Virus genome (UHGV): UHGV-2198558
DNA from: a virus
DNA length: 45,555 bases
Direction: 5' to 3' (one strand)
The notes under the pieces are model-generated. The model did no database searches. It worked only from the letters and a program-made list of their open reading frames with translations, and was not told the origin of the DNA. This document shows, one piece after another, positions 2,900-41,582 of the stretch; within the stretch, counting starts at the first letter, position 1; each line of letters begins with the position of its first letter. Both the position numbers and the translations under genes were made by a program.

Positions 2900-2940
2900 G
2901 CGCTTTACTCCTTGTAAAATAGTACAATAATTTATTTTTT

Positions 2941-2969: not shown

Positions 2970-2990
2970 GCCTTTAGAGAGCGTTTTCAT

Positions 2991-3038
2991 ATAAAAACTC
3001 AGGCTCTGTGAGAAGACACTATACCTCTCACAGAGCCT
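2991..3038 (-). terminator. Rho-independent terminator after the SRAP gene; also the boundary between the AT-rich island and the prophage body
   Basis: Perfect 13-bp inverted repeat aggctctgtgaga / tctcacagagcct with a 12-nt loop; U-run on the minus strand (plus-strand aaaaa 2993-2997). Confidence 0.55.
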
Positions 3039-3045
3039 CTATTCA

Positions 3046-3681: not shown

Positions 3682-3695
3682 AAGACCACGACCTT

Positions 3696-4253: not shown

Positions 4254-4258
4254 CTGCC

Positions 4259-5131: not shown

Positions 5132-5291
5132 TACAAAGCTCTCCTTCAAGAATGTATGGGATAGTCAATCCTCAAAACGAACAAATATTCTTATTGAAAT
5201 CTGTGCAACCCTACAAAGTTTATCAAAGACTTTTCAACGCTGAAAACGTTAGAAATGCGAAATTTGGCGTAGGCATTGCATCTTTGATCAC

Positions 5292-5563: not shown

Positions 5564-7492
5564 ATGACTATATATCTTGATAGAGGACCGTTTCTCACCA
5601 TTCCCGACAAGCTGCATTCGGGGCAGTACAGAGTGATCCGCAACCCCGACTGGCACGGAGTACTGCCGGAGATCGTGTCCTTCACCGATTTTCTCAAATG
5701 GAATTACACACTGGAGTATGGTCAGTATATCCGCAAATTGCACTACTACCACCAGCTTCCGCTGCCGTGGGTCGTTCCACAGGATGCCGAGATAGAAACT
5801 GTCATCATCGAGGAAGGCAGATATGACCGCATTGATCACAATTCCTTTGATATGTATGTGATATGCGATGTCGTGTTCGAGATGAACGGCTGCCGGCAGT
5901 GCCAGAAGTATATCGTACACGGCTTTTACTGCTCTTACGGCGGTTCAGACTTTCTGTGCGGTGCGGAGCTCTACAATGGTCAGTTTATCCGGCTGAACAA
6001 TCCCTTAGATGAGTTTCTGGTTCCCATCCTTTCAAAGAAAGAATTTGCAAGCATTGCACAAGCAATCATCGACCACTACTATTCATACAAATCGAATTAT
6101 CCCTGCCGCATCAATACTGCTTCAATTGCAAAGGCAATGGGTCACGATATAAAGTATGCCAGACTGTCAAAAAACGGAAATGTCAAGTCCAAGCTGATCC
6201 TGGACAAGCGGGATACGACCGTCTATGATAAGGAATACAAAGCTGTCAAAATGCGGATCGACAGTCCTACGATCCTTGTGGACGAGTCATTGGAGGAGGA
6301 TGAAGCGCAGAACGCCATTATTCATGAGTGCGTTCACGCTTACCTTCACAACCTCTTCTATGAGCTGCAGAGCTACTATCGGAAAATGGTCGGCAGGAAG
6401 ATGCCGGAGTTCAATGACTACTTCTATTCCAAGACGCAGCGTAGCTGCCTGAAATGGATGGAAACACAGGCAAATGCCATCCCACGCTTTATTCAGATGC
6501 CGGAGGAGCAGGCATCCGATGTCATCCTGAACTTCTTCGAGCGACTCCCCGGAGAGCCTGACTGGGACGATTACAGAGAACTGATCGACCTTGTGAAATG
6601 GAAGTTCGGAGTATCCCGCAATGCTGCGAAGAAGCGTATCATTGAGCTTGGCTGGCCGGAGGTGCGCGGTGTGTATGTCTACAACACCACAGGATATGTT
6701 GAGGACTACGATGTAGAGCTAAGATTCCCGCAGGACTATACCTATACACTGTCATTCCGCCAAATCTCTGATGTGTTTGCATCCTGCGAGACCTTCGCAG
6801 AGCTTGTCCGTTCCAAGAAGTTCATCTATCTGGACGGTCATGTTGTGATCAACAGCGACAGGTATATCCGCAAGGAACACGGCTTAGCTATGGGCTTGAC
6901 AGAGTATGCTAGACACCACATGGCAGAGTGCTGTCTGGATTTCAAGCGTATCTACGCAGAATTCGACTACAGCTATACCTATGGCGAGCTACACAAGGAT
7001 GACCTGACCGAGATCACGGCCGAAAACCGTTCGTTCAGCGATGAACAGCGAAAGAAGATCCGCATGGCAATGTATGAGATCACAGAAGAAAACTATAAAC
7101 TGACCGTTCCTTCAGATGTCAACGAATTCGGCAAGGCGGTGCGTTTCCATATGGAGAGATGCGGTCTCACCTCGGATCTGGTTGCAGACCGCAGCGGCAT
7201 GGGTGTGAACACTGTCAATAAGATGCGCAGTGGCAAGAGAGTGAAGCTCGAAACAGTGCTAGCTTTTTGTGTCGCTTTGGAGCTTGAAGAGTCGTTCCGC
7301 ATTGACCTTATGCAGAAAGCGAAGGTTGATTATGATATGAGCAATCCTGCCCATCGGCTCTATGTCACGATCTTTGAGCTGATGCCGAAGGCAAATGTCT
7401 TTCAGATCAACGATCTGCTGAAGGCAGAAGGCTTTACGCCGTGGACGAGGGACTGCGAGGAAAAGAAGCGGTATGCTAAGAAAAGTATGTAA
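5564..7492 (+). CDS. Large regulatory protein: HExxH (ImmA/IrrE-like) metallopeptidase motif plus C-terminal XRE-type HTH
   Basis: 642 aa; CAGGAGGG RBS; IIHECVHAYLH motif mid-protein; C-terminal HTH (GLTSDLVADRSGMGVNTVNKMRSGKR). Confidence 0.7.
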   Translation: MTIYLDRGPFLTIPDKLHSGQYRVIRNPDWHGVLPEIVSFTDFLKWNYTLEYGQYIRKLHYYHQLPLPWVVPQDAEIETVIIEEGRYDRIDHNSFDMYVICDVVFEMNGCRQCQKYIVHGFYCSYGGSDFLCGAELYNGQFIRLNNPLDEFLVPILSKKEFASIAQAIIDHYYSYKSNYPCRINTASIAKAMGHDIKYARLSKNGNVKSKLILDKRDTTVYDKEYKAVKMRIDSPTILVDESLEEDEAQNAIIHECVHAYLHNLFYELQSYYRKMVGRKMPEFNDYFYSKTQRSCLKWMETQANAIPRFIQMPEEQASDVILNFFERLPGEPDWDDYRELIDLVKWKFGVSRNAAKKRIIELGWPEVRGVYVYNTTGYVEDYDVELRFPQDYTYTLSFRQISDVFASCETFAELVRSKKFIYLDGHVVINSDRYIRKEHGLAMGLTEYARHHMAECCLDFKRIYAEFDYSYTYGELHKDDLTEITAENRSFSDEQRKKIRMAMYEITEENYKLTVPSDVNEFGKAVRFHMERCGLTSDLVADRSGMGVNTVNKMRSGKRVKLETVLAFCVALELEESFRIDLMQKAKVDYDMSNPAHRLYVTIFELMPKANVFQINDLLKAEGFTPWTRDCEEKKRYAKKSM

Positions 7493-21500: not shown

Positions 21501-21568
21501 GAGTGTGTAAGCGACAAAGCGTGGCAAGGTCAAAATCCAATAAACAATCATACAGGAGGAACACGAAT

Positions 21569-22663
21569 ATGAGAATCATTACTTCAGAACAGGTATCCGC
21601 AGGACATCCCGACAAGATCTGTGACCAAATCGCGGATGCCATCGTGACAGACTGCCTTCAGCATGACCGCAGCAGTCGTGTTGCGATAGAGTGTCTTTTC
21701 AAGAACCGCTGTCTTGTGATCGCCGGTGAGCTGACCAGTACCCATGAGCCGGACTACAAGGCTCTGGTGCAGCAGGTGTTCGACCGTATCAACAACGGCG
21801 GAGCTGAGAACAGCGATGCGGGACTTGACTACAAGCTGGACTTCACCGCCGATGATCTGGACATTGCGATTCTGGTCGATCACCAGAGCAATGACATTGC
21901 GCTCGGTGTGAATGTCGGCGGTGCAGGAGATCAGGGTATGATGTACGGCTATGCGACCAACGAAACGCCGGAGATGCTCCCGATCCCCTTCGTGCTGGCT
22001 ACCAGATTTCTGGAACTGCTGAAAGCCTACCCCTGCCGTATGCTGAAAGCCGATGCAAAGGCACAGGTCAGCTATGACTATGACAGCGGTCGCATTACCA
22101 CCTTCCTCTGCTCGGTGCAGCATACACACGATGTGGATGTTGAGGACTTCAAGCCCATCATCGAAAAGCTGATGGTGAGAACGGCAACCGAATACGGGCT
22201 GAATACAGACTTTGCAAAGCTCGTCAACCCGACCGGCAGATTTGTCATAGGCAGTTCCTTTGCGGACTGCGGCGTTACCGGACGCAAGCTCGCCTGCGAT
22301 ACCTATGGCGGTATCGGGCATATCGGCGGCGGTGCAATGTCCGGCAAAGATCCGTCTAAGGTTGACCGCAGCGGCGCATATGCAGCAAGAAAAATCGCAA
22401 GGGATATCGTCAGCGCCGGATATTCAGACAAGGCAGAGGTGCAGATCGCATACGCCATCGGTGTGGCAGAGCCCGTATCCGTGTATGTAGAGACTTTTGG
22501 CACGGAGCATCAGGATACGGAGTTCATCAACCAGTATGTTCGTGAGAATTATGACCTCACGCCGAGGGGAATCATCGAAGGGCTGCATCTGCTCGATGTG
22601 GACTATAACGCCATTTCCGCATACGGACACTTCGGAAAACAGAACCTTCCGTGGGAACTATAA
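21569..22663 (+). CDS. metK: S-adenosylmethionine synthetase
   Basis: Collinear with bacterial MetK: SAGHPDKICDQIAD, GAGDQGMMYGYA, DTYGG, GGGAMSGKDPSKVDRSGAYAARKIA; GGAGGA RBS before ATG 21569. Confidence 0.88.
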   Translation: MRIITSEQVSAGHPDKICDQIADAIVTDCLQHDRSSRVAIECLFKNRCLVIAGELTSTHEPDYKALVQQVFDRINNGGAENSDAGLDYKLDFTADDLDIAILVDHQSNDIALGVNVGGAGDQGMMYGYATNETPEMLPIPFVLATRFLELLKAYPCRMLKADAKAQVSYDYDSGRITTFLCSVQHTHDVDVEDFKPIIEKLMVRTATEYGLNTDFAKLVNPTGRFVIGSSFADCGVTGRKLACDTYGGIGHIGGGAMSGKDPSKVDRSGAYAARKIARDIVSAGYSDKAEVQIAYAIGVAEPVSVYVETFGTEHQDTEFINQYVRENYDLTPRGIIEGLHLLDVDYNAISAYGHFGKQNLPWEL

Positions 22664-24097: not shown

Positions 24098-24583
24098 ATG
24101 ACACTGACAGAGAACTTCATTCGTGATGCGATACAGCTTGACAGCGGTGCAGAGGTCATGTACGGCAGCGATCAGATCTATGACACCTACCCCTGCCGCT
24201 TTCCGACTGTCGAGTTCCAGCTCATGGCAACGGATGCACTTGCGGAGGTCGCAGACCGCATCCGAATGGAGAAAGGCTATCTCCCGATGCATCCGAGGGA
24301 CGGGCGCACGGACGATGTTGACAATGACGGCTGGTACGACTTTTATATCGGGATTAGCAAGCTCCCCAGCGATCATAAGGAATGCAAACTTGACAGCAGC
24401 ATTAGTTTCGTGGTCGTCAATTCAGATTCCGATGACAACGAGGATATGTACAGCATTGACCTGACTGAAACAGAGCAGGCGTATGTGTATGAAATACTGA
24501 ACCGGCAATGCCGGAGATATCACGGGAAGGACTGTGCCACGCTTCTGGCAGAGTCTGAAAAGGAGCTGATGGATACAGCATGA
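24098..24583 (+). CDS. Hypothetical protein
   Basis: AGGAGGA RBS before ATG 24098; 161 aa; stop overlaps the nrdD start. Confidence 0.55.
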   Translation: MTLTENFIRDAIQLDSGAEVMYGSDQIYDTYPCRFPTVEFQLMATDALAEVADRIRMEKGYLPMHPRDGRTDDVDNDGWYDFYIGISKLPSDHKECKLDSSISFVVVNSDSDDNEDMYSIDLTETEQAYVYEILNRQCRRYHGKDCATLLAESEKELMDTA

Positions 24584-26721
24584 GGATAATAAAACGAAAC
24601 GGCGCTGAGGTGCCGTATGACTGCGAAAAGATACGAGCCGCAATATCAGCGGCAAATGATGAAGTGCCGGAGAAGATATCAGATACAGTGATCGGATTCA
24701 TTGTCGGGAATGTAGAAAAACGCTGTCATGCCCTTGCAAGACCTGTCCATGTCGAAGAAGTCCAGGACATGGTTCTTGATGAACTGGACAAGGCCGAGGC
24801 TTACAAACTTGCACGGCACTACAGTGAGTACCGCCTGTGGCATGAGCAGCAGCGCCGTATGAACACCACCGACGGCAAGATTCTCAGTCTGCTGGAACGC
24901 AACAACGAGGAGGCAAAGCAGGAGAACGCCAACAAGAACCCCATCATCAACAGCACGCTCCGTGACTATATGGCGGGAGAAGTCAGTCGGGATATATGTC
25001 GGCGCTTCCTGTTTCCGGAGGATGTGATCGCCGCCCATGATGACGGCATCATTCATGTGCATGACCTCGACTACATCGCAGAGCCGATGCACAATTGCTG
25101 TCTGGTGAATCTGGAGGATATGCTTCAAAACGGCACAGTGGTATCCGGTACTATGATTGAGAAGCCGCACAGCTTTTCGACTGCCTGCAATATCGCAACG
25201 CAGATCATTGCACAGGTGGCATCAAATCAGTACGGCGGACAGACGGTATCTCTGGCACATCTTGCGCCTTTCGTGGATATCAGCCGACAGAAAATTCGTG
25301 CCGAGGTGTTCGAGGATGTGAACTGCGACTGCGGTGCAAAGCTGTCTGAAAAAGAACTGGACTACATCGTAGAAAAGCGCGTGCGACGGGAAGTCAAGCG
25401 AGGCGTACAAACGATCCAGTATCAGATCAACACGCTCCTGACAACCAACGGTCAGACACCGTTCGTGACGGTATTCATGTATCTGGACGAGGCACCGGAG
25501 GGACAGACCAGAGATGACCTTGCACTCATTATCGAGGAAACGCTGCTTCAGCGTATCGAGGGCGTGAAAAACGAGAAGGGCGTGTGGATCACACCGGCAT
25601 TCCCGAAGCTGATCTATGTTCTCGATGAGGACAACATTCAGCCCGGTTCCAAGTATTACTACCTCACCGAGCTTGCGGCGAAGTGTACCGCAAAGCGTAT
25701 GGTTCCCGACTATATTTCCGCAAAGGTGATGAAACGTCTGAAGGGTGATGTGTATGCCTGCATGGGCTGCCGGTCATTCCTGACACCTTCTGCCGACCAC
25801 AAATACTACGGCAGATTCAATCAGGGAGTCGTCACGATCAACCTTGTGGATGTTGCGTGTAGCGCAGGCGGAGACGAAGATAAATTCTGGCAGCTTCTTG
25901 ATGAACGCTGCGAACTGTGCCGCAAGGCTCTGATGTGCAGGCATGAACGTCTGAAAGGTACGCCGTCCGATGTTGCACCGATCCTCTGGCAGTATGGCGC
26001 ACTTGCGAGACTGAAGAACGGTGAGGTCATTGACAATTTGCTGTATAACAACTACAGCACGATCTCCCTCGGCTATGCCGGCATCGCGGAAATGACCTAC
26101 CGCATGACAGGCTGTTCGCATACAGAGTCGGAGGGAAAATCCTTCGCCATTTCAGTGATGCATTTTCTGAACGATAAGTGCAGCAAATGGAGAGCTGAAA
26201 GCAATATCTCGTTCTCGCTATACGGCACGCCGATGGAATCTGTGACCTACAAATTTGCAAAGTGTCTGCAAAGGCGGCATGGTATTATTCCGCACGTCAC
26301 GGACAGGAGCTACATTACCAACAGCTATCATGTCCATGTGACAGAGCCGATCGACGCCTTCAGCAAGTTGTCCTTTGAAGCGGAGTTTCAGGAGCTTTCT
26401 CCCGGCGGTGCGATTTCGTATGTAGAAGTGCCGAACCTTCAGAACAACATTCCTGCGGTTCTGGCACTCATGAAACACATTTACGAAACGATTTTATATG
26501 CTGAACTCAACACTAAGTCCGACTACTGTCAGGCTTGTGGCTATGACGGGGAGATGCAGATCGTGGAAGAGGACGGCAAGCTGATCTGGGAATGCCCGAA
26601 CTGCGGCAACCGTGACCAGCGGACAATGAATGTCTGCCGCCGCACCTGCGGATATCTCGGAACGCAGTTCTGGAATCAAGGGCGCACACAGGAGATCGCA
26701 GAAAGGGTGATGCACCTGTGA
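24580..26721 (+). CDS. nrdD: Anaerobic ribonucleoside-triphosphate reductase
   Basis: N-terminal ATP-cone; C-terminal zinc ribbon CQACG...CPNCG; glycyl-radical motif RRTCGYLG; 713 aa. Confidence 0.88.
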   Translation: MRIIKRNGAEVPYDCEKIRAAISAANDEVPEKISDTVIGFIVGNVEKRCHALARPVHVEEVQDMVLDELDKAEAYKLARHYSEYRLWHEQQRRMNTTDGKILSLLERNNEEAKQENANKNPIINSTLRDYMAGEVSRDICRRFLFPEDVIAAHDDGIIHVHDLDYIAEPMHNCCLVNLEDMLQNGTVVSGTMIEKPHSFSTACNIATQIIAQVASNQYGGQTVSLAHLAPFVDISRQKIRAEVFEDVNCDCGAKLSEKELDYIVEKRVRREVKRGVQTIQYQINTLLTTNGQTPFVTVFMYLDEAPEGQTRDDLALIIEETLLQRIEGVKNEKGVWITPAFPKLIYVLDEDNIQPGSKYYYLTELAAKCTAKRMVPDYISAKVMKRLKGDVYACMGCRSFLTPSADHKYYGRFNQGVVTINLVDVACSAGGDEDKFWQLLDERCELCRKALMCRHERLKGTPSDVAPILWQYGALARLKNGEVIDNLLYNNYSTISLGYAGIAEMTYRMTGCSHTESEGKSFAISVMHFLNDKCSKWRAESNISFSLYGTPMESVTYKFAKCLQRRHGIIPHVTDRSYITNSYHVHVTEPIDAFSKLSFEAEFQELSPGGAISYVEVPNLQNNIPAVLALMKHIYETILYAELNTKSDYCQACGYDGEMQIVEEDGKLIWECPNCGNRDQRTMNVCRRTCGYLGTQFWNQGRTQEIAERVMHL

Positions 26722-27185
26722 ATTACTGCGGTCTGAATAAAAACGATATTGCCAACGGTGAAGGTGTGCGTGTGTCGCTGTTCGTGTCCGGATGCCGGAA
26801 TCACTGCATCGGCTGTCACAATCCCGAAGCATGGGATTTCGGCTACGGTCAGCCGTTTACCAAAGAAACCGAAAAAGAGATCATCGAAGCCCTGCGTCCT
26901 TCTTGGATACAGGGCATTTCTATACTCGGCGGTGAACCCTGCGAGGAGGAAAACGAGCGTGTTCTGATACCGTTTCTGAAACGGATAAAACTTGAGTCTC
27001 CGAATTCGGACACTTGGCTGTTCTCCGGATACACCTACGAAATGCTTCAGAATGATGAGATTCTCAAATACATTGATGTGCTTGTGGACGGGCCGTTCCT
27101 GATGGAACAGAAGAACATCTCCCTTGCATTCCGGGGCAGTCGGAATCAACGAATCCTCCGATTAAGAAATGGGGTGCGTGTATGA
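26718..27185 (+). CDS. nrdG: Anaerobic RNR activating protein (radical SAM)
   Basis: CRNHCIGCHN (CxxxCxxC) near the N-terminus; GTG start overlapping the nrdD stop. Confidence 0.82.
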   Translation: MNYCGLNKNDIANGEGVRVSLFVSGCRNHCIGCHNPEAWDFGYGQPFTKETEKEIIEALRPSWIQGISILGGEPCEEENERVLIPFLKRIKLESPNSDTWLFSGYTYEMLQNDEILKYIDVLVDGPFLMEQKNISLAFRGSRNQRILRLRNGVRV

Positions 27186-27499
27186 GAGCCAGACTGAAAC
27201 CGCCGGGAGATGCTGTCCGCTGCGATGCCTGCGGATGTGCCTTTGTGCCGGAGCCGAAAATGCAGCGTGAGGGAGAGATCGAATACAGCTTCCTCAACTG
27301 TGATTACTGTGGCAAAGCGTATATCGTGTCTGTGACCGATGCCGCACTCCGCCGGAGCATCCGCAAGTACCGGACGCTTGCCGAAAAGCTGAAGGGCAAG
27401 CCGTTGAGTGAAGATACGCTCCGTGAGGTCACGGCGCTGAAGGATGCGAACACAAAAAGAGCCGCAGAGCTGCGGCAGATGTATATTCGGGAGGGATGA
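27182..27499 (+). CDS. Hypothetical zinc-ribbon protein
   Basis: CDACGC...CDYCGK; ATG overlaps the nrdG stop. Confidence 0.5.
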   Translation: MRARLKPPGDAVRCDACGCAFVPEPKMQREGEIEYSFLNCDYCGKAYIVSVTDAALRRSIRKYRTLAEKLKGKPLSEDTLREVTALKDANTKRAAELRQMYIREG

Positions 27500-27500
27500 G

Positions 27501-28772
27501 ATGAAAACAGCAGAACTTCGCATGATCCCTGTCTCGGAGCTGAAGCCTGCGGAATACAATCCGCGTAAAAAGCTGAAGCCCGGCGACAAGGAATACGAGA
27601 AGATCAAAAACAGCATCGAGGAATTCGGCTTTGCCGACCCGCTTGTTGTCAACGCCGACATGACGATCATCGGCGGACACCAGAGACTGACCGTAGCAAC
27701 GGCGCTCGGTTACACGGAAGTTCCGTGTGCGGTGGTGGACATCGACAAAGTCCGTGAGAAGGCACTGAACATTGCGCTGAATAAGATCACGGGTGCATGG
27801 GACGAGAATCTTCTGGCGGAACTTCTCGAAGATATCCAGAGCAGCGATTTCGACCTCGGCAAGACCGGCTTTGATCCGCCGGAGATCGAGCAGCTTTTCA
27901 ATGCCGTTCATGACAAGCAGGTCAGTGAGGACAGCTTCGATGTGGAGGAGGAGCTGCAAAAGCCGACATTCTCGCAGCCGGGAGATATCTGGATTCTCGG
28001 CAGGCACAAAGTCATCTGCGGCGATAGTACAATCGCAGAGACATACACCAAGCTGATGGACGGGCAGAAGGCAAACCTCGTCCTGACCGATCCTCCGTAC
28101 AATGTGGATGTTGAGGAAACTGCCGGAAAGATCATGAATGACAACATGAGCGACAGTGATTTCTATAGCTTCCTGCTTTCCGCTTACAAGTGTATGTATG
28201 ACAGTCTTGCCGATGACGGCAGCATTTATGTATGGCACGCCGACACCGAGGGGCTGAACTTCCGCAGAGCGTTCAAGGAGGCAGGCTTCCAGCTTTCTGG
28301 CTGCTGTATCTGGAAGAAGAATTCTCTGGTGCTGGGCAGAAGCCCCTATCAGTGGATTCATGAGCCGTGTCTCTTCGGGTGGAAACAGAAGGGCAAGCAT
28401 CAGTGGTATGCCGACCGCAAGCAGACAACTGTATGGGAGTATGACAAGCCCAAGAGCAGCCCCGATCATCCGACCACAAAGCCTATCCCGCTGATGGCGT
28501 ACCCGATCAAGAACAGCACCATGACCAACGGCATCGTTCTCGATCCGTTCCTCGGCAGCGGTTCGACACTGATCGCCTGTTGCGAGACAGACCGTGTTTG
28601 TCGGGGCATCGAGCTTGATCCGAAGTTCGTGGATGTCATTGTCAAGAGGTATCTGGCATGGTGCCAAGAGAAGCAGACCGCCGAGGTCGCATATGTCATT
28701 CGTGATGGACAGAAGCTCACCTATGAGGAGGCTATCGCAGCGATGCCGCAGGGCGGTGATGCAGTTGAGTGA
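27501..28772 (+). CDS. ParB-like nuclease domain fused to a DNA methyltransferase (N6-adenine/N4-cytosine class)
   Basis: N-terminal ParB-like segment (PAEYNPR...IIGGHQR); methyltransferase motif IV TDPPY and motif I DPFLGSGST; GGGAGGG RBS. Confidence 0.82.
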   Translation: MKTAELRMIPVSELKPAEYNPRKKLKPGDKEYEKIKNSIEEFGFADPLVVNADMTIIGGHQRLTVATALGYTEVPCAVVDIDKVREKALNIALNKITGAWDENLLAELLEDIQSSDFDLGKTGFDPPEIEQLFNAVHDKQVSEDSFDVEEELQKPTFSQPGDIWILGRHKVICGDSTIAETYTKLMDGQKANLVLTDPPYNVDVEETAGKIMNDNMSDSDFYSFLLSAYKCMYDSLADDGSIYVWHADTEGLNFRRAFKEAGFQLSGCCIWKKNSLVLGRSPYQWIHEPCLFGWKQKGKHQWYADRKQTTVWEYDKPKSSPDHPTTKPIPLMAYPIKNSTMTNGIVLDPFLGSGSTLIACCETDRVCRGIELDPKFVDVIVKRYLAWCQEKQTAEVAYVIRDGQKLTYEEAIAAMPQGGDAVE

Positions 28773-29544
28773 TGTGAAGTGTGTATTATATCACGACAAC
28801 TTCCAAAACTTCAAAGGCTACAGCATCCCGAAAGCGCAGCTCGTCATCGCTGACATCCCGTACAACATCGGCGGCGATTTTTACGCAAGCCGCCCCGACT
28901 GGTATGTGGACGGTGACAATCAGAACGGCGAAAGCAGCAAAGCACATAAGGCGGCATTCCATACAGATTACAGCTTTAACATTGCTGAATACTTCGCCTT
29001 CTGCAACCGACTGCTCAAAAAAGAGCCGCCAAAAGGTGAAAAGGATGCGCCGTGCATGATCGTGTTCTGTGCCTTTCAGCAGATACCGGAAGTCATCCGG
29101 CAGGCGGAGAAATACGGCTTCAAGAAGTATCAGTTTTTGTGTTTTATGAAGAATTACAGTCCGCAGGTGTTGAAGGCGAACATGAGGATCGTGGGCGCAA
29201 CGGAATACGCTCTGGTGCTGTACCGGGGCAAGCTGCCGAAATTCCGAAACACGGATGAGAATGGCAAACACCACATGATCTTCGACCATTTTGACTGGAT
29301 GCGGGACGGCAAGGATATCCCGAAGATACATCCTTCGCAGAAGCCGGTAAATCTCCTGAAACGGCTGATCGGGATATTTACCGACGAGGGTGATGTGGTC
29401 ATCGATCCCTGCGCCGGTTCCGGCTCAACGCTGCGTGCGGCGAGGGAGCTTGGCAGACACAGCTACGGCTTTGAAGTCAGCCGGGATTTTTATAATAAAG
29501 CCTGTGAACTGATGCTTGGGGAGGATACCGATGACGAAGCATGA
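28759..29544 (+). CDS. Second DNA methyltransferase (N6-adenine/N4-cytosine class)
   Basis: ADIPYNIG (DPPY-like) and IDPCAGSGST (motif I); start overlaps the previous gene. Confidence 0.72.
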   Translation: MQLSDVKCVLYHDNFQNFKGYSIPKAQLVIADIPYNIGGDFYASRPDWYVDGDNQNGESSKAHKAAFHTDYSFNIAEYFAFCNRLLKKEPPKGEKDAPCMIVFCAFQQIPEVIRQAEKYGFKKYQFLCFMKNYSPQVLKANMRIVGATEYALVLYRGKLPKFRNTDENGKHHMIFDHFDWMRDGKDIPKIHPSQKPVNLLKRLIGIFTDEGDVVIDPCAGSGSTLRAARELGRHSYGFEVSRDFYNKACELMLGEDTDDEA

Positions 29545-29776
29545 ATGTGCGGTCGTGACCGCTTACACAGAGATTTCTATGCTCAAGGGCGACGATCTGA
29601 AATATCTGTATGACTATCTTTCCGGCTTTATCGGCAGACCGGTGTATACACACGAGATTTCTGCTGTGGTGATGGCTTACAGAGAGCAGATCAGGGAGGA
29701 CTTCCTCGATCTGTGCAGGAACGCAAAGGAGGCGGATGATGGATCAGAAACACTTGACTCTCGGCAGCTTATTTGA
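29531..29776 (+). CDS. Hypothetical small protein
   Basis: GGGGAGGA RBS before ATG 29531; overlaps flanking methyltransferase genes. Confidence 0.4.
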   Translation: MTKHECAVVTAYTEISMLKGDDLKYLYDYLSGFIGRPVYTHEISAVVMAYREQIREDFLDLCRNAKEADDGSETLDSRQLI

Positions 29777-32339
29777 CGGCTCCGGTGGCTTTCCGCTTGG
29801 CGGCATCCTTGCAGGGATCGAGCCGAAGTGGAGCAGCGAAATTGAACCATTCCCGGTGCTTGTCACGCACAAGCGGCTGCCGCAGGTGAAGCACTACGGC
29901 GATGTATCCAAACTGAACGGAGCAGAGCTTCCGCCGGTGGATATCATCACCTTCGGCAGCCCGTGTCAGGATCTGTCCATAGCGGGCAAGCGCGCCGGAA
30001 TCCATGACGGTGATCGGTCAAACCTGTTCTTTCAGGCGATCCGCATCATCAAAGAAATGAGGGATGCAACAAATGGACGATATCCGCGATACTGCGTCTG
30101 GGAAAATGTCCCCGGCGCTTTCTCATCCAACGGAGGAAACGACTTCAAGGCTGTCCTCGAAGCAGTTATCGGAGTTAAAGAAAAAGGGATCGAGGTGCCT
30201 GCGCCTGAAAATCACAGATGGGCAAAATCAGACGTATATCTGGGAGACGGATGGAGCGTGGCTTACCGAGTTTTCGATGCTCAATACTGGGGTGTCCCCC
30301 AACGCAGAGCAAGAATCTACCTTGTCGCAGATCTTGCTGGTGGAAGTGCCGGAGAAGTATTATTTAAGTCCGAAGGCGTGTCTGGGTATACTCCGCAGGG
30401 CTTCCGTGCGTGGCAAGGAGCTGCCGGAGGTGCTGAAGAAGGCACTGGAGAGACAGGCGGGCGGTCTGACGCTGGAGGTGGAACCCTCTGCCTGAATACA
30501 CAGGGCAACAGCGGCGTCGGCATCACCGAGAACAAGGCTCTCGCACTGGTCGCACAGGATCATGGCAATCATCCGGCTGTGCTTCATGCGGTCGGTATCG
30601 ACGGCTACAATGCTGCGGTCACCGATGATACGGCAGCAACGCTTGGTGTGAACTGCGGAATGTCCACAGGCAGAAACGGTGTCCTGCAGGCGGCGGGATT
30701 TTCCACAGAACACAGTGCAAAAGCAAGGAGCATCGGCTACGAGGAAGAGGTATCTCCCACACTTCGAGCCGGTGTTGTTCCGGCGGCAATGGAGTTATAT
30801 GAAAATCATGGGCAGGACAGCAGATTCAGAGGACCTTTGGATGTAGCACAGCCTGTGACTGCTACCTACGGCATGGGCGGCAACAATCAGCCGCTTGTGG
30901 TAGAGAACAATCCCACGGACGGCAGAGCGAAGATCAATCCCGACGGTGTGTTTCAGACGCTCTGCGGACGAGCCGGAACAGGCGGAAACAACACGCCGCT
31001 TGTTGCTGAACCGGTCACGCTGAAAATCAGGTCGGGATGTGAGGGCGGTGGCAAGGGTGCTTTATGGCAGACCGACAAGTCTGCTACGCTCGGCACAAAC
31101 AATGACCAGAGTGTATTTGTTCCGTTCGTCAAGGGAACACGTCCGCACTCTGCTGAAGAGGGGCAAACATGGAAACCCGGCGAGGTCGCCAATACACTGA
31201 ATACCTTTGATGTCGGTGAAAGTCGCTGCAATGAACTTGTGGTGGAAGAGCCGCAGATCAGGGCTTTCGGTGTATGCAGCAAGCATTCCAATGCGATGAT
31301 GTCCGACAATCCGCACAGCGGATTCTATGAGGCGACCACAAGCAGAACGCTCGACCAAAGTGGTGGAAATTCTGTGACATCGAATCAGGGCGGCATCTGC
31401 GTGGTAGCACCTGCGCCTGAAACCTTCGATGTGCGTTTCACATCAGACGGTACAAAAAACGCTCGTGGGCATTGCTATCCGACAGACATCTCCCGATGCC
31501 TTGATACGAGCGAGGGATCGCCAGACTCGAATCACGGCGGTGTCGCTGTGGTGGCTCTTGAACCGGGGGCTGCATCACGTGTCGGCGGTCATGTATACAG
31601 TGACGGCAAAAGCGGTACGCTTCGAGCCAATGCCGGCGATAATCAGCAGGCTGTTGTGGTCGCCGAGCCGGAGACCTATGCTCTGCAAGGCTCGATGATC
31701 GGTCGTGCCGACAAGAACGGTCCGCAGGGTGATGGCATCAACGAGGATGTGTGCTTTACGCTCAATACATCGGACAGACACGCCATTGCCGCACCTGATC
31801 CGTCCTTCACAATTTCCCGCGACAACCATTTTGCCGTTTCGGAGGATGTATCCGTTACAGCCGTGGCAAGAGGCCCTGCGGCAGTCGCAGCACCGGCAGA
31901 CCACTATTGCACCAGTAAGAATTCGCATCATACGGTCGCCGCCCATGAGCAGGCAAACACGCTGGTCGCTTCCGACTGGAAGGATCCGCCGCTTGTGAAC
32001 GACCTTCCGAATGACGAGCCAGTATATATCGTTCGCCGCTTGACTCCGGTTGAGTGCGCCAGATTGCAGGGATTCCCTGACTGGTGGTGTGCCGACCTTG
32101 CAATTACTGATCCTTCCGATGAGGAGATCGCCTTCTGGACGGAGGTCTGGGAGACATGGCGGCAGGTCACAAATCCCAAGGGCAAGCCGAAAACGGAAAA
32201 GCAGATCCGCAAATGGCTGGCTGATCCGTACACGGATTCAGCGGAGTACAAGCTGTGGGGCAACGGTGTCTCAGAGCCGGTCGTATACTTCGTGCTTTCC
32301 GGCATCGCATGGGCAGCGCAGAGAGATACACAAAAGTGA
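29736..32339 (+). CDS. C5-cytosine DNA methyltransferase with an unusually long, repetitive target-recognition region
   Basis: Motif I LFDGSGGF, motif IV GSPCQDLSIAGKR, motif VI ENVPGA, motif X RRLTPVECARLQGFPDWW; about 550 aa between motifs VIII and IX with at least 8 TL-type motifs; 867 aa. Confidence 0.85.
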   Translation: MMDQKHLTLGSLFDGSGGFPLGGILAGIEPKWSSEIEPFPVLVTHKRLPQVKHYGDVSKLNGAELPPVDIITFGSPCQDLSIAGKRAGIHDGDRSNLFFQAIRIIKEMRDATNGRYPRYCVWENVPGAFSSNGGNDFKAVLEAVIGVKEKGIEVPAPENHRWAKSDVYLGDGWSVAYRVFDAQYWGVPQRRARIYLVADLAGGSAGEVLFKSEGVSGYTPQGFRAWQGAAGGAEEGTGETGGRSDAGGGTLCLNTQGNSGVGITENKALALVAQDHGNHPAVLHAVGIDGYNAAVTDDTAATLGVNCGMSTGRNGVLQAAGFSTEHSAKARSIGYEEEVSPTLRAGVVPAAMELYENHGQDSRFRGPLDVAQPVTATYGMGGNNQPLVVENNPTDGRAKINPDGVFQTLCGRAGTGGNNTPLVAEPVTLKIRSGCEGGGKGALWQTDKSATLGTNNDQSVFVPFVKGTRPHSAEEGQTWKPGEVANTLNTFDVGESRCNELVVEEPQIRAFGVCSKHSNAMMSDNPHSGFYEATTSRTLDQSGGNSVTSNQGGICVVAPAPETFDVRFTSDGTKNARGHCYPTDISRCLDTSEGSPDSNHGGVAVVALEPGAASRVGGHVYSDGKSGTLRANAGDNQQAVVVAEPETYALQGSMIGRADKNGPQGDGINEDVCFTLNTSDRHAIAAPDPSFTISRDNHFAVSEDVSVTAVARGPAAVAAPADHYCTSKNSHHTVAAHEQANTLVASDWKDPPLVNDLPNDEPVYIVRRLTPVECARLQGFPDWWCADLAITDPSDEEIAFWTEVWETWRQVTNPKGKPKTEKQIRKWLADPYTDSAEYKLWGNGVSEPVVYFVLSGIAWAAQRDTQK

Positions 32340-32599: not shown

Positions 32600-32712
32600 A
32601 AAACAACTTCCTTTCAGATATATTATGACTTTATTTTAGACCTGTTTTGTGGTATAATGTTTGAAATGGATATAAAGTGTATCTAAAATATATCTATAAG
32701 AAGTTGTACGAT

Positions 32713-33051
32713 ATGAAAATAGCAATTATTGGCTCACGGGGACTTCATGTGAATGACCTTGAACGGTATCTTCCGGAAGATGTCACAGAAATCGTCAGCG
32801 GAGGAGCAAGGGGCATTGATTCGGATGCGCGGGCATACGCACAGGCACACGGCATTCCGCTGAAGGAGTTTCTGCCGGATTATGAACGCTTCGGCAGGAG
32901 CGCCCCGCTGAAACGGAATCTTGAGATCATCGCTTATGCCGATGTGGTGCTTGCATTCTGGGACGGACAGTCACGCGGCACGAAATATGTGATAGACCAT
33001 TGCCGGGAACAGCACGTTCCGGTCAGGGTTTTCGCACCGAGAAAGAAATAG
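32713..33051 (+). CDS. SLOG/DprA-like Rossmann-fold protein
   Basis: IAIIGSRG...VSGGARGIDSDARAYA...ADVVLAFWDGQSRGT pattern; start uncertain (ATG 32713 or GTG 32677). Confidence 0.5.
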   Translation: MKIAIIGSRGLHVNDLERYLPEDVTEIVSGGARGIDSDARAYAQAHGIPLKEFLPDYERFGRSAPLKRNLEIIAYADVVLAFWDGQSRGTKYVIDHCREQHVPVRVFAPRKK

Positions 33052-33186
33052 TAATAAAGAAGCCATGCAGCAAATTGTGAACATTCTGATACTAAATCAG
33101 ATGTTCTGCCGCAGGGCTTCTTTCTATTCTGTACTATGCACAATCTAAAGGGCAGACACGCCCCGTACATTCTCCGTTTTACAGTC

Positions 33187-33215
33187 TTGCATTCCGGGGC
33201 AAAAGACGGTAATAT
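33187..33215 (+). promoter_or_regulatory. Cassette promoter 1
   Basis: TTGCAT, 17-nt spacer, TAATAT, followed by GTGAC leader. Confidence 0.5.
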
Positions 33216-33283
33216 GTGACTACGAAAACGCCGCAGCCCAACGCACAAGGCTGAGGGGCGGCAGTAAAAACGGAGGTAATCAT

Positions 33284-34192
33284 ATGGAAATCAAGTTCAA
33301 TATTGAAAAGAGCCAGCGCAAGGCACTGGCACAGAAAATCGGCGAGCTGACAGGAGCAGAGGTCAAGTACCTCGGTGTACCGGGCTGCAGATACCAGATC
33401 GACTTCTTCACCCTGGACAAAAACGCAGTCCTCAGTTTCAGCGACCGCATCGACACAGATATCGTGGAGAAGGTACTGAATGGGCTTGCAGAGGCAGGAT
33501 ATGAAAGCAAAACAGTAGCACCGCCGGAAGAAACGGATGCTTCGGCTGAATCAGAGCCGGATATCCCTGACGAACCGAGCAGCGGATTTCCGCTGCTCGC
33601 AAGCATCAGCTTCCCGATTGCAGAGCACACGGTGCAGAGCCTTACAAACCTTATCTGCATGATCCACTCCCGCGGCGCACTTCTCAGCAAGGCGACCGGC
33701 GGACAGTTCTTCGCAGACAAGAGCCTCGCCGATGCGATCCTCGATGACAAGACCTTCCGCAGCATCCACGAGCTTATCGCCTACATCAGAGTATGGGAGG
33801 AAACGAATCCCGAACTGAAGGGCATCCGTTTCGCCGATGACAAGCTGATCTTTGACGGCTTCGGTGCAGCGCAGGATGCCGAAACGGTGCAGACCTTCAC
33901 CAAGCTCGCCACAGCCATGAACAGGATGGCGATCACGCAGAAACGTGTGCAGGCAAAGGATGTCGATGACAGCAACGAAAAGTACGCACTCCGCATCTGG
34001 CTGATCCGCCTTGGGCTGAACGGCGCAGACTGCAAGGTTGACCGCAAGCGCCTCATGGCTCCGCTTTCCGGACACACCGCATTCCGCAACGATGCGGAGC
34101 GTGTGCGCTGGGAGGCAAAGCAAAAGGCAAAGCGTGATGCTGCCAGAACCGAACTGACCGAGGAGGATGAAAACGATGCAGTTTCCGAATGA
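33284..34192 (+). CDS. Hypothetical protein sharing a C-terminal module with the amidoligase
   Basis: CGGAGG RBS; C-terminus KYALRIWLIRLGLNGADCKVDRKRLMAPLSGHTAFRN aligns with the amidoligase C-terminus. Confidence 0.6.
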   Translation: MEIKFNIEKSQRKALAQKIGELTGAEVKYLGVPGCRYQIDFFTLDKNAVLSFSDRIDTDIVEKVLNGLAEAGYESKTVAPPEETDASAESEPDIPDEPSSGFPLLASISFPIAEHTVQSLTNLICMIHSRGALLSKATGGQFFADKSLADAILDDKTFRSIHELIAYIRVWEETNPELKGIRFADDKLIFDGFGAAQDAETVQTFTKLATAMNRMAITQKRVQAKDVDDSNEKYALRIWLIRLGLNGADCKVDRKRLMAPLSGHTAFRNDAERVRWEAKQKAKRDAARTELTEEDENDAVSE

Positions 34193-34424
34193 AAGACAGC
34201 TCAGAGCCTTGCGGGAGCGTTATCCCGCAGGCACCCGCATCCGACTGAAGCATATGGATGACCCTTATGCACCCGTACCGCCCGGCACGGTCGGCGAGGT
34301 TCAGATGGTTGATGACGGCGGCAACATACACATGGTCTGGGAGAATGGCAGAACGCTCTCCCTTATAGACGGTGTCGATGATTTCCAGGTCATTTCTGAC
34401 CGCAATGGGGGCTCCGGAAAATAA
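34176..34424 (+). CDS. Small conserved protein (DUF4314-like by recall)
   Basis: GAGGAGG RBS 9 nt before ATG 34176; GTVGEVQMVDDGGNIHMVWENGRTLSLIDGVDDF. Confidence 0.45.
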   Translation: MQFPNERQLRALRERYPAGTRIRLKHMDDPYAPVPPGTVGEVQMVDDGGNIHMVWENGRTLSLIDGVDDFQVISDRNGGSGK

Positions 34425-34537
34425 GAGATCCTATTCCATTGTATCCGAGTATACCATAGAATTTCAAGTATATCAAGTGTACACATACACCAGATATGAG
34501 CAATGTATTTTCCTCGATATTCTGTGGTTTTAGCGGC

Positions 34538-34566
34538 TTGCTATATCCTCCGAAAGACGGTAATAT
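34538..34566 (+). promoter_or_regulatory. Cassette promoter 2
   Basis: TTGCTA, 17-nt spacer, TAATAT, then conserved leader GTGACACAACGGAAGGGCAAACGCCCACCGAAAA. Confidence 0.55.
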
Positions 34567-34621
34567 GTGACACAACGGAAGGGCAAACGCCCACCGAAAA
34601 ACCGAATCGGAGGATACCAAA

Positions 34622-35566
34622 ATGACTGAGAAAACCGCACAGCAGATCAACAGAATGAAGGAGCAGACCATCGGGGTTGAGATCGAGATGAACAACATCA
34701 CCCGCAAGGCTGCCGCAAAGCTCGCCGCCGACTTCTTCGGCACGAACCGCTACGAGGACACGGCCTGCCGCAACGGCTACGAAACCTACAGTGCTTGGGA
34801 CGCACAGGGACGCGAGTGGAAATTCCAGAAGGACGTCAGCATCGCAGGCCCCGACAGCGAAAAGTGCGAACTGGTCACACCGATCCTGCACTACGCAGAC
34901 ATCGAAACCCTGCAGGAGCTTGTGAGAAGGCTCAGAAAGGCAGGAGCGCGCAGTGATTACACGCGGGGATGTGGAGTCCACTGCCACATTGGAGCCCAGG
35001 GACACACACCGCAGAGCCTCAGAAACCTCGCAAACCTTATGGCAAGCCACGAAACCCTGATCGCCGAGGCAATCAGAGTAGACCAGAGCAGAATGCACCG
35101 CTACTGCAGAACAGTTGACCCGAGATTCCTTGAACAGCTCAACCGCAAAAAGCCCACCACGATGGCACAGCTTGCGGACATCTGGTACGGCGCACAGGGC
35201 TGCGAATACGGCAGAACCCACCACTACAACGACAGCCGCTATCACATGCTCAACCTCCACGCTACCTTCACCAAAGGCACGGTCGAGTTCAGACTTTTCC
35301 AGTTCGCACCGCCTTCCAACGGCAAGCAGAACGGGCTCCACGCAGGCAAGCTCAAGAGCTACATTCAGCTCTGCCTCGCAATGAGCCAGATGGCAAAGGA
35401 CCTGCGGAGCGCCAGCCCCAAGGAACAGCAGAAGGAAAACAAAAAGTTCGCCATGCGGACTTGGCTGATGAGAATGGGATTCATCGGGGATGAATTCGCA
35501 ACGGCGAGAGAGGTCCTCACTGAGAACCTTACGGGCGACAACAGCTTCCGCTTCGGCAGATCTTAA
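34622..35566 (+). CDS. Amidoligase_2-family enzyme (putative peptide/metabolite ligase)
   Basis: N-terminal GVEIE motif; 314 aa; immediately upstream of an AIG2-like cyclotransferase gene, the conserved neighbourhood I recall for this family in Firmicutes phages. Confidence 0.65.
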   Translation: MTEKTAQQINRMKEQTIGVEIEMNNITRKAAAKLAADFFGTNRYEDTACRNGYETYSAWDAQGREWKFQKDVSIAGPDSEKCELVTPILHYADIETLQELVRRLRKAGARSDYTRGCGVHCHIGAQGHTPQSLRNLANLMASHETLIAEAIRVDQSRMHRYCRTVDPRFLEQLNRKKPTTMAQLADIWYGAQGCEYGRTHHYNDSRYHMLNLHATFTKGTVEFRLFQFAPPSNGKQNGLHAGKLKSYIQLCLAMSQMAKDLRSASPKEQQKENKKFAMRTWLMRMGFIGDEFATAREVLTENLTGDNSFRFGRS

Positions 35567-35831
35567 AGGCCTGCCCTTCGGGGCGGAAGAACAAGCGGAA
35601 CGGCACGGCGGCGCACACAGCCGCCACGGTCTCGGCTCTCGCCTCGGTCGGTGCTTCTGCTTCGCAGAGGTTGCCACTGGCAACCCGCACCCCCGTGTGT
35701 GGCGGAAAGGGTATCCTCCGAATCGGTATCCCATCTCAGTCAACCGCGCCACACAGCGCAAATGTAGGCAAGGCATAAAATGCACAACATACGGCACAGA
35801 ATCGCCCTCGATGATCTGTTCATTTACCCGC

Positions 35832-35860
35832 TTGATAATGCCGCCGAAATGAGTTAACAT
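35832..35860 (+). promoter_or_regulatory. Cassette promoter 3 (diverged leader)
   Basis: TTGATA, 17-nt spacer, TAACAT. Confidence 0.45.
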
Positions 35861-35899
35861 AGCACTACCGCAAGGAAAAAACGCAAAGGAGAACATAGC

Positions 35900-36367
35900 A
35901 TGAACAAGAAAAAATACTACATAGCCTACGGCAGCAACCTCAACATCCGCCAGATGCGATTCCGCTGCTCAGGCGCAAAGCCCATCGGCATTTCCGCGAT
36001 TCCTGACTACGAACTGCTCTTCAAGGGCAGCAAGACGGGAGCGTACCTCACCATCGAGCCGAAGGACGGCGGGCTTGTTCCGGTCGCCGTGTGGGAAGTG
36101 ACAGCCGACGATGAGAAGCACCTCGACATCTACGAGGGCTACCCGAACTTCTACTACAAGAAGGAAGTCCGCCTGCCAATCAGGCTGGCAAACGGCAAGA
36201 CCAAAAAGGTCACGGCATTTGTCTACATCATGCACGAGGAGCGTGAGATTGCGATCCCGTCAATGACCTACATCCGCACCTGCGAGGAAGGCTACCGCAA
36301 CTTCGGCTTCGACACCAAGTTCCTTGATGCCGCCTACGAGATCAGCGCAAAGGAGGTACAGCGATGA
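35900..36367 (+). CDS. AIG2-like / gamma-glutamyl cyclotransferase family protein
   Basis: YIAYGSNLNIRQM N-terminal motif; AAAGGAG RBS; 155 aa. Confidence 0.75.
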   Translation: MNKKKYYIAYGSNLNIRQMRFRCSGAKPIGISAIPDYELLFKGSKTGAYLTIEPKDGGLVPVAVWEVTADDEKHLDIYEGYPNFYYKKEVRLPIRLANGKTKKVTAFVYIMHEEREIAIPSMTYIRTCEEGYRNFGFDTKFLDAAYEISAKEVQR

Positions 36368-41108: not shown

Positions 41109-41582
41109 ATGGCTCAGAGAGGCAGAAAACCGACGCCGACAGCAATCAAGGAACTGGAAGGCAATCCCGGAAAACGACCGCTGAATGATGCAGAGCCGAA
41201 GCCGGAACGCAAGGCACCGCCCTGTCCGAAGTGGCTGGAGCCCGAAGCAAAAAAGGAATGGCGCAGGCTGTCAAAGCAACTGGAGCAGATTGGTGTGCTG
41301 ACCGAGGTCGATCAGGCGGCATTCGCATCCTACTGTCAGGCATACGCACGATGGAAAGAAGCCGAGGAATTCATGACCCAGCACGGCACGATCGTAAAAA
41401 CAAAATCAGGTTACTGGCAGCAGGTTCCGCAGGTATCCATTGCGCAAACTTATCTGAAGATCATGAACAAGATCGCAGAGCAGTTTGGCCTGACCCCGGC
41501 GGCAAGAAGCCGTATCACTGCCGGCGCAGATATGAAAAACGCTGCCGTTGACGATATGGATGAACTTCTCGGAGGTGGCTGA
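41109..41582 (+). CDS. terS: Terminase small subunit (P27-family-like)
   Basis: MAQRGRKPTPTAIKELEGNPGKRPLN N-terminus; AAGGAG RBS 8 nt before ATG 41109; stop overlaps the terL start. Confidence 0.8.
   Translation: MAQRGRKPTPTAIKELEGNPGKRPLNDAEPKPERKAPPCPKWLEPEAKKEWRRLSKQLEQIGVLTEVDQAAFASYCQAYARWKEAEEFMTQHGTIVKTKSGYWQQVPQVSIAQTYLKIMNKIAEQFGLTPAARSRITAGADMKNAAVDDMDELLGGG

Follow-up and report, generated by a model that had tools for sequence, protein, structure and literature searches.

The window, i.e. the whole stretch of 45,555 nucleotides (nt) of the virus genome UHGV-2198558, carries at 29736-32339 on the plus strand an open reading frame (ORF) for a C5-cytosine methyltransferase (MTase) of 867 amino acids (aa). 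Its long variable region seemingly consists of many short target recognition domains (TRDs) in tandem. The whole protein matches PF00145 with 129.1 bits (cut-off 22) and TIGR00675 (dcm) with 120.9 bits (cut-off 100.65). The PF00145 match is divided into an N-terminal piece (aa 9-143 and ~175-198) and a C-terminal piece (aa ~766-785). The TIGR00675 match is divided too, and M.HhaI, found with the full protein by phmmer against the PDB (E = 3.6e-14), is likewise matched in two separated pieces. Alignment to M.HhaI reveals a single set of catalytic motifs in canonical order: I (FDGSGG, aa 13-18), IV (SPCQ, 75-78, with the catalytic Cys77), VI (ENV, 123-125), VIII (QRRARIY, 189-195), IX (RRLTPVECARLQGFP, 767-781) and X (GNGV, 842-845). 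All canonical motifs claimed in an earlier, sequence-only reading of this DNA are hence present. Across 110 family members P76-C77-Q78, E123-N124-V125, Q189/R191/R193 and R767..G779 are invariant. The catalytic core is intact.

Between motifs IX and X, AlphaFold2 (AF2) predicts ~55 aa (aa ~785-840; 32136-32270) to be helical, with a predicted local distance difference test (pLDDT) score of ~90-97. They are conserved in the family; the corresponding spacing in HhaI looks shorter. An intein or another foreign domain as the reason for the length of the protein was ruled out, as Pfam yielded no Hint or LAGLIDADG match. An intein with Hom_end and Hint_2 domains is located inside a homolog of 1159 aa (P0037, 83% identity to the MTase of the window).

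A modular region between motifs VIII and IX

Motifs VIII and IX are separated by an insert of ~565-570 aa, the variable region (aa 201-765). A long variable region of about 550 aa had been proposed to lie between the catalytic core and motif X. Its existence holds, its placement does not. The region contains 11 Thr-Leu (TL) dipeptides where 2.18 are expected from its composition, a ~5-fold excess (Poisson P = 1.8e-5). None of 20,000 shuffles of the region reached 11, the maximum being 9. The excess is thus real and not owed to chance. The eight T-L peptides quoted in the sequence-only reading are all present, and variant motifs occur as TY (377-378), CL (588-589) and TA (708-709). The composition is rich in Gly, Asn and Thr as proposed, each residue exceeding its share in the core (G 12.9% vs 8.9%, T 7.8% vs 4.0%, N 6.4% vs 3.0%); Ser is enriched as well.

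Using presence/absence boundaries in homologs together with motif spacing, aa 248-761 were divided into 13 modules (M1-M13) of 33-54 aa with a mean of ~40. Ten of them hold a TL, while M4, M9 and M12 show TY, CL and TA, respectively. Module ends share a junction made of a hydrophobic strand followed by E/P (VVAEP, VVEEP, LVAEP), which is repeated at the DNA level too. A blastp self-comparison of the variable region did not detect internal repeats, and the idea of a simple tandem repeat was dropped. The modules are therefore no recent tandem duplicates, save for two paralogous pairs that show at the DNA level: M4/M5 share a 30-nt junction repeat with 77% identity, M8/M9 a 34-nt repeat with 74% identity. 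Coordinates and properties of all modules are given in Table 1.

Gain, loss and selection of modules across the family

An exhaustive HMMER search of 1.84 billion cluster representatives returned 33,471 matches with E <= 0.001, 3,526 of them at E <= 1e-30. The best 150, clustered at 50% identity, served as representatives of the family. In 13 close homologs, 85-97% identical to the window protein where shared, nearly all differences come down to discrete blocks (33-43 aa) that are either present or missing, every block holding one T-L or T-Y motif. P0076, for instance, lacks M2, M4 and M7, P0119 lacks M2, M6 and M7, and P0096 lacks M10 and M12 but has one extra cassette. Among 120 close homologs the occupancy of these blocks is 0.42 for aa 285-318, 0.18 for aa 354-388, 0.10 for aa 462-504, 0.92 for aa 608-642 and 0.88 for aa 689-720. 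The rest is close to 1.0, and extra blocks elsewhere are rare. At the DNA level the relative L007 differs from the window by indels of 105, 105 and 129 nt, all cleanly in frame.

The same holds for the wider family. In the 150 representatives conservation covers the N-terminal 240 aa and the C-terminal 100 aa, whereas the proteins range from 299 to 1133 aa in total length. The variable region measures 117-701 aa in the 77 full-length representatives, and its length follows the TL count (r = 0.81) with ~35 aa per TL. The shortest members have one to three modules whose types differ between members. Each module of the window recurs in 3-74 of the 150 representatives, and 100 distinct architectures were found among 139 proteins. 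With the two paralogous pairs merged, the order of modules is unlike that of the window in 47 of the 111 proteins with at least two recognisable modules. Two of these cases were checked by blastp: P0179 carries an M11-type module N-terminal to the M8/9, M2 and M5 types, and in P0150 an M2-type module comes last, directly ahead of motif IX. De novo clustering of 1068 windows centred on T-[LIV] gave 36 recurrent clusters, or ~25 after removal of off-register duplicates, ~12 of these types being absent from the window protein. The similarity edges among these windows numbered 9091, compared to a single one after shuffling.

A single cooperative domain would not tolerate such in-frame gain, loss and re-ordering; the long region, which was tested for aligning as one non-repetitive domain, does not do so. 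Taking the natural variants as a proxy for deletion and exchange experiments, the sequence comparisons indicate that the region is an array of autonomous, shuffled cassettes. Its evolution most likely proceeds by adding, losing, duplicating and swapping entire modules in frame, with a family-wide stock of at least ~25 types as the source.

Selection was evaluated by Nei-Gojobori comparisons with the DNA of three relatives (L007, L009 and L010). The ratio of nonsynonymous to synonymous substitution rates (dN/dS, omega) is 0-0.34 in every module and mostly < 0.12, compared to 0.08-0.22 in the catalytic core and 0.2-3.3 in the linker between motif VIII and M1 (aa 201-247), the only segment without clear purifying selection. 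Over aa 201-761 omega amounts to 0.07. Substitution counts per module are small and single omega values hence rough; the linker consistently stands apart from the modules. Even the optional cassettes M2 and M7 keep 91-100% amino-acid identity at a synonymous rate (dS) of 0.4-1.1. Every module, optional cassettes included, is under purifying selection. Compared to L007, dS is 0 in M10, 1.97 in M5 and 1.19 in M12, and adjacent modules jump from 0 to > 1.5. Due to these jumps between neighbouring modules the gene appears as a recombinational mosaic with breakpoints near module borders.

Comparison with known C5 MTases and rival explanations

The Bacillus phage enzymes M.SPRI, M.Phi3TI/M.SPβI, M.Rho11sI and M.H2I are, like the enzyme of the window, phage-borne orphan C5 MTases with one core. 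In both, the region between motifs VIII and IX is enlarged by contiguous short units around T-[LIV], and both share the local patterns VYxxxGxSxTLxxxxG...hydrophobic-E and FT[VL]NTxDRH. For comparison, the genes of SPβ (mtbP), SPR, ρ11s and H2 were used. Their variable regions contain two (SPβ), three (SPR) and four (ρ11s and H2) T-[LIV] motifs at a spacing of 30-48 aa. According to the work of Trautner's group there is one such motif per mapped TRD, pseudodomains included. Trautner et al. (1996) reportedly found TRDs of ~40-50 aa in these enzymes, and Lange et al. (1991) are said to have described inactive pseudodomains in them.

Local matches are found for several modules: M10 (GGHVYSDGKSGTLRANAGDNQQAVVVAE in the window, NDQVYNSNGLSPTLTTNKGEGVKISVP in ρ11s), M5 (PDGVFQTLCGRAGTGGNNTPLVAE in the window, PDGVSPTLTTMGEGHREPKIAVE in the Bacillus phages) and M13 (NTLVASDWKD in the window, HTLSASDWRG in SPR). 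M11 (EDVCFTLNTSDRHAIA) matches EPAFTVNTIDRHGVAI of the TRD common to all four Bacillus enzymes, and its stretch FTLNTSDRHAIA resembles FTVNTIDRHGVA of the Bacillus phages. In a pairwise blastp, a stretch of two modules (aa 616-695) aligns with aa 364-443 of H2 at E = 8e-4. A profile built from eight Bacillus TRDs only gives four weak matches in the window protein that sum up to 12.6 bits, whereas 200 shuffles remain at <= 4.9. This likeness is compatible with either distant homology or convergence on a TL scaffold. The reading as tandem TRDs of the SPR/phi3T type that had been suggested from the sequence is backed by these shared local patterns as well as by cassette behaviour and re-ordering.

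There are marked differences as well. The window enzyme has ~13 modules in 867 aa, the Bacillus phage enzymes two to four in 439-503 aa. The window enzyme is further set apart by its Gly-rich linker of ~47 aa after motif VIII and its helical insert of ~55 aa between IX and X, and natural populations show wide presence/absence and re-ordering of cassettes out of at least ~25 types. Hosts of the window lineage are gut Clostridia (Oscillospiraceae, Ruminococcus), those of the other enzymes Bacillus. As the catalytic cores are just 30-31% identical, the window enzyme belongs to a different subfamily. A further prophage enzyme, M.BssHII/M.φBssHII of Bacillus stearothermophilus, is said to combine five specificities in a single C5 MTase (Schumann et al. 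1996). Its TRDs reportedly lie at separated locations, whereas all modules of the window enzyme lie between motifs VIII and IX. M.HhaI and M.HaeIII have the same catalytic fold and motifs (Foldseek E = 2e-14), and in these enzymes TL with its flanking recognition loops reads the DNA (PMC2413257). They possess one TRD of ~80-100 aa and usually a restriction enzyme partner, compared to ~514 aa of modules in the window enzyme. TL is a conserved DNA-contacting TRD motif in M.HhaI and M.HaeIII and has been used to delimit the TRDs of multispecific enzymes (PMC2413257, PMC2790894).

The contact trimers N-TL and C-TL differ among all 13 modules. Neely and Roberts published, among others, SRN/GRQ for GGCC and QGE/RHG for GCGC (PMC2413257). 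None of the 13 modules matches the published trimers, and predicting specificities from trimers was given up for this reason. The C-TL trimer of M11, DRH, is identical in SPR, SPβ and ρ11s; the upstream Arg is missing in M11. The TRD common to all four Bacillus enzymes is GGCC-specific; no target is assigned to M11.

Taken together, the enzyme seems to work like the Bacillus enzymes in every feature that can be tested in silico, yet it belongs to a different and much larger subfamily. We consider it probable that it represents an orphan multispecific C5 MTase with at least three specificities conferred by tandem TRDs. By analogy with the Bacillus phage enzymes of Trautner's group, from which the following steps are derived, the modules would be active TRDs of different specificity with a role in anti-restriction. 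One core (I-VIII, IX-X) would carry ~10-13 autonomous recognition cassettes between its halves. At each encounter with DNA one module would dock in the major groove against the core and pick a short sequence, the target cytosine would be flipped out and methylated from S-adenosylmethionine (SAM), and the remaining modules would be looped out and flexible. A SAM synthetase of the phage would be the source of the cofactor. Since each active module would add one more target sequence, DNA of the lytic progeny is proposed to resist many Type II systems at once. Anti-restriction is the presumed role of the Bacillus phage multispecific enzymes, too (PMC12707154).

Several observations weigh against multispecificity by tandem TRDs, and some of them favour other explanations. 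AF2 models the core with pLDDT > 90 and the modular region (aa ~215-760) with 25-50; in the two-module relative P0178 the modular part reaches 34-61. At values of 25-61 AF2 gives nothing for or against a TRD fold. The low confidence would fit a flexible region that folds in dependence on DNA, without proving anything. Foldseek against the PDB just re-found the cores of HhaI, HaeIII and DNMT3. For the variable region alone, a Pfam scan gave no family other than PF00145, and phmmer no match to PDB sequences up to E = 10. Moreover the likeness to Bacillus TRDs is weak and local with cores of just ~31% identity. With aa 215-760 predicted at such low confidence and no known domain there, the insert could serve a role other than DNA recognition, e.g. 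as a disordered tether, as a contact to a host or phage protein or as a defence decoy, while a conventional short TRD beside motif IX sets the specificity on its own. We regard this as very unlikely, considering the strong purifying selection over aa 201-761, the TL enrichment with TRD-like local patterns in nearly every module, and a length that scales with the TL count across the family. Somewhat less remote, though still improbable, is a solenoid or clamp in which the modules, as repeat units, together form a single large DNA-binding surface, so that cytosine methylation is relaxed or almost non-specific. Units can be gained and lost in repeat proteins, the Gly/Asn/Ser/Thr-rich composition and the short strands predicted at module ends would suit such a surface, and mobile elements are known to employ semi-specific orphan methylases (PMC12707154). 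However, the modules are unlike each other beyond the TL pattern, only M4/M5 and M8/M9 being paralogous. Autonomous units account better for re-ordering and arbitrary combinations, there are single modules similar to TRDs of sequence-specific enzymes, and AF2 does not predict a solenoid.

The strongest rival, which we nevertheless hold to be unlikely, accepts the array as real and takes most modules for inactive pseudodomains or leftovers, so that only one or two motifs are methylated, e.g. via the family-wide M8, M11 and M13. In its favour, no modules are more widespread than M8 and M11 (74 and 70 of the 150 representatives), and M4, M9 and M12 with their non-canonical TY, CL and TA may be inactive pseudodomains of the kind reported for the Bacillus enzymes. 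The scarcity of certain sites points the same way: in the phage part of the window (5401-45555) GGCC occurs 22 times compared to 165 expected (observed/expected, O/E, 0.13) and CCWGG at 7 sites in 40 kb, as though unprotected. CTAG (O/E 0.14), ACGT (0.31) and CGCG (0.40) are depleted as well and the 6-mers AAGCTT, CAGCTG, GCCGGC, CCATGG and GGCGCC are nearly absent, while GATC, AGCT and TCGA are not depleted (O/E ~0.9-1.0) and GCNGC is abundant (325). Depletion of GGCC and CCWGG would be unexpected if those sites were protected by methylation. It could equally reflect avoidance of unprotected sites or erosion of methylated ones by deamination of 5-methylcytosine. As restriction avoidance and deamination are not separable here, depletion was not used as evidence. 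Against largely inactive modules stands the selection data: dead domains are expected to decay, yet all modules are constrained while the adjacent linker is not, M2 and M7 included. Minimal family members, moreover, hold different sets of modules, which argues against a single universal active module. Multispecificity by tandem TRDs remains the reading we favour.

Genomic setting and implications

Judged from its genes the window is a temperate phage. A plus-strand replication block comprises, according to Pfam, a DUF2800 nuclease, an Enc34-type single-stranded DNA-binding protein, a family A polymerase, a SNF2 helicase and a D5-type primase. The MetK gene (Table 1) is the probable cofactor supply for heavy methylation. 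Directly upstream of the C5 MTase are two further orphan MTase genes, a ParB_N + N6_N4_Mtase fusion (27444-28772) and an N6_N4_Mtase within the ORF at 28594-29544. The small DUF7736 ORF precedes the C5 MTase in all relatives that were examined and may encode a regulator or partner of it. An Arc-like ORF and a gene for a SLOG protein are also close by. The region is bordered by replication and terminase genes, both terminase subunits (small and large) following the amidoligase cluster at the right of the window. Pfam detected no nuclease family near the C5 MTase that could represent a restriction partner.

The window represents a gut Firmicutes phage that resembles Candidatus Heliusvirales. The best annotated relatives of its C5 MTase, with full-length identities of 42-51%, come from Candidatus (Ca.) Heliusvirales (NatCom) gut phages of Oscillospiraceae, Acutalibacteraceae and Ruminococcus, and the neighbourhood of ParB-MTase, amidoligase and MetK is common to these phages. 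In Ca. Heliusvirales genomes a C5 MTase is present in 67% and MetK in 58.9% (PMC11283538). These phages have a broad host range and few matching spacers of clustered regularly interspaced short palindromic repeats (CRISPR) (PMC11283538; bioRxiv 10.64898/2026.01.26.701711). Their C5 MTase (K00558) is probably of the same gene family as the window enzyme. Published accounts of it cover its presence and a presumed anti-restriction/anti-CRISPR role, with nothing on modular TRDs or multispecificity (PMC11283538; bioRxiv 10.64898/2026.01.26.701711).

Table 1. Coordinates of the C5 MTase segments and neighbouring genes in the window. "Recurs in" counts proteins out of the 150 representatives, "occupancy" is the fraction of the 120 close homologs, and cluster sizes refer to the de novo clustering.
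Feature	Position	Strand	Description	Evidence
MetK	21503..22663	+	S-adenosylmethionine synthetase	Pfam S-AdoMet_synt N, M and C domains
Two orphan MTase genes	27444..29544	+	directly upstream of C5 MTase	Pfam; gene order kept in relatives
DUF7736 ORF	29516..29776	+	small; 41-nt overlap with MTase start	Pfam PF24875; synteny L006-L010
Core, N-terminal part	29736..30335	+	aa 1-200; motifs I/IV/VI/VIII	Pfam PF00145 and PDB HhaI/HaeIII matches; AF2 pLDDT > 90; dN/dS 0.08-0.22
Linker	30336..30476	+	aa 201-247; Gly/Ala/Glu-rich, between motif VIII and M1	present in all close homologs; omega 0.23, 1.06 and 3.3 in three pairs
M1	30477..30587	+	aa 248-284; TL at 250; tail LALVAQDHGNHPAVL resembles M13 type	recurs in 12; omega 0.06-0.18
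M2	30588..30689	+	aa 285-318; TATLGVNCGMSTGRNG; optional cassette	occupancy 0.42; 105-nt in-frame indel vs L007; recurs in 21; C-terminal end of P0150 array; omega 0-0.055
M3	30690..30788	+	aa 319-351; IGYEEEVSPTLRAG	recurs in 38; omega 0-0.02 with dS up to 1.5
M4	30789..30899	+	aa 352-388; TATYGMGGNNQPLV; T-Y variant; optional cassette; M5 paralog	occupancy 0.18; 105-nt in-frame indel; omega 0.16-0.34
M5	30900..31007	+	aa 389-424; NPTDGRxKIxxDGVFQTLCGRAGTGGNNTPLV	recurs in 52; one of just two modules in minimal members P0178, P0207, P0255
M6	31008..31118	+	aa 425-461; TLKIRSGCEGGGKGALWQTDKSATLGTNNDQ	absent from P0119, P0120; recurs in 44; omega 0.06-0.10
M7	31119..31247	+	aa 462-504; QTWKPGEVANTLNTFDVGESRCNE; optional cassette	occupancy 0.10; 129-nt in-frame indel; omega 0.014 vs L009
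M8	31248..31409	+	aa 505-558; NPHSGFYEATTSRTLDQSGGNSVTSNQGG	recurs in 74; cluster 4, 71 proteins; omega 0-0.09
M9	31410..31556	+	aa 559-607; ISRCLDTSEGSPDSNHGG; C-L variant; M8 paralog	recurs in 59
M10	31557..31667	+	aa 608-644; GGHVYSDGKSGTLRANAGDNQQAVVV; fits Bacillus TRD pattern xVYxSxGxSxTLTxxxG	occupancy 0.92; absent from P0096; H2 alignment
M11	31668..31796	+	aa 645-687; GPQGDGINEDVCFTLNTSDRHAIA; nearest to TRD common to all four Bacillus phage enzymes	recurs in 70; cluster 2, 93 proteins; best match of Bacillus TRD profile
M12	31797..31895	+	aa 688-720; SEDVSVTAVARGPAAV; T-A variant of TLVAxGPxAV type; optional cassette	occupancy 0.88; cluster 8, 34 proteins; omega 0.024 vs L007
M13	31896..32018	+	aa 721-761; EQANTLVASDWKDPPLV; resembles SPR SHTLSASDWRG	one of two modules in P0178, P0207; omega 0.02-0.03
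Core, C-terminal part	32019..32339	+	aa 762-867; motif IX RRLTPVECARLQGFP, helical insert, motif X GNGV, stop codon	Pfam/PDB matches; AF2 pLDDT ~90-97
YspA/SLOG-like	32677..33051	+	downstream cluster	
302-aa ORF	33284..34192	+	downstream cluster; without family	
DUF4314		+	downstream cluster	
Amidoligase_2	34622..35566	+	downstream cluster	
GGACT	35900..36367	+	downstream cluster; gamma-glutamyl cyclotransferase-like	

The downstream cluster (32677-36367, plus strand) is conserved, the same set being found in the Heliusvirales phage NatCom_11578. Genes for an anaerobic ribonucleotide reductase NrdD and its activase NrdG (24580-27185, plus strand) lie upstream of the three methylase genes. The left end of the window (78-5149 on the minus strand and 5564-7492 on the plus strand) has a lower G+C content of 0.38-0.48. 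Its minus strand encodes a HATPase_c_3 protein (78-1589), an SRAP peptidase, a thymidine kinase and a CI-like repressor with helix-turn-helix (HTH) and peptidase S24 domains. Opposite these genes, a 642-aa Peptidase_M78/HTH protein is encoded at 5564-7492 on the plus strand. The left end is probably a lysogeny and moron module. In the large terminase (41582-44248, plus strand, 888 aa) a LAGLIDADG_3 match (aa 303-369) precedes those to the TerL ATPase (442-580) and nuclease (589-872); it probably marks an intein or the insertion of a homing endonuclease. Two features seen in relatives are absent from the window. A PAPS_reduct-family gene lies between the ParB-MTase and the N6_N4 MTase in L007 (4225-5034), L009 (1-611) and L010 (584-1393) and may be part of another DNA-modification function. 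A trio of tyrosine recombinases follows the C5 MTase directly in phages bearing the homolog P0076 (L007 8366-11572, L008 3594-6800).

In the literature searched, which did not include REBASE, neither C5 MTases exceeding five TRDs nor modularity in the Heliusvirales enzyme were found to be described. A review of 2025 cites just Bacillus phage cases of multispecific C5 methylases (PMC12707154), a textbook curiosity so far confined to a few such phages with two to four recognition domains. The principle is thus already known, whereas its scale, the cassette pool at population level and the occurrence in the dominant lineage of gut Firmicutes phages are not described in this literature. If active as read here, the enzyme would extend the Bacillus principle to three to four times its scale, and would do so in a family that is very large and characteristic of the most prevalent phages of gut Firmicutes.

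Only tentatively, and with more doubt than confidence, we suggest that the C5 methylase of Ca. Heliusvirales and their relatives, the most prevalent order of human-gut Firmicutes phages, is a combinatorial 'master key'. Up to ~13 active cassettes on a single core, assembled by in-frame shuffling out of a stock of at least 25 types and fuelled by the SAM synthetase, would then cover about ten or more motifs and be one main reason for the broad host range and the scarcity of matching CRISPR spacers. An enzyme that is active as read here would in any case provide a concrete mechanism for the broad host range of these gut phages and a clear case of domain-cassette evolution in the arms race. The family would moreover supply a natural collection of DNA-recognition modules that are short and portable, of use in deriving specificity rules for C5 MTases and in methylase engineering. 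One phage gene may then explain many 5-methylcytosine motifs in gut metagenome methylomes, and the hypermethylated phage DNA would in turn be a target of methyl-dependent (Type IV) restriction.

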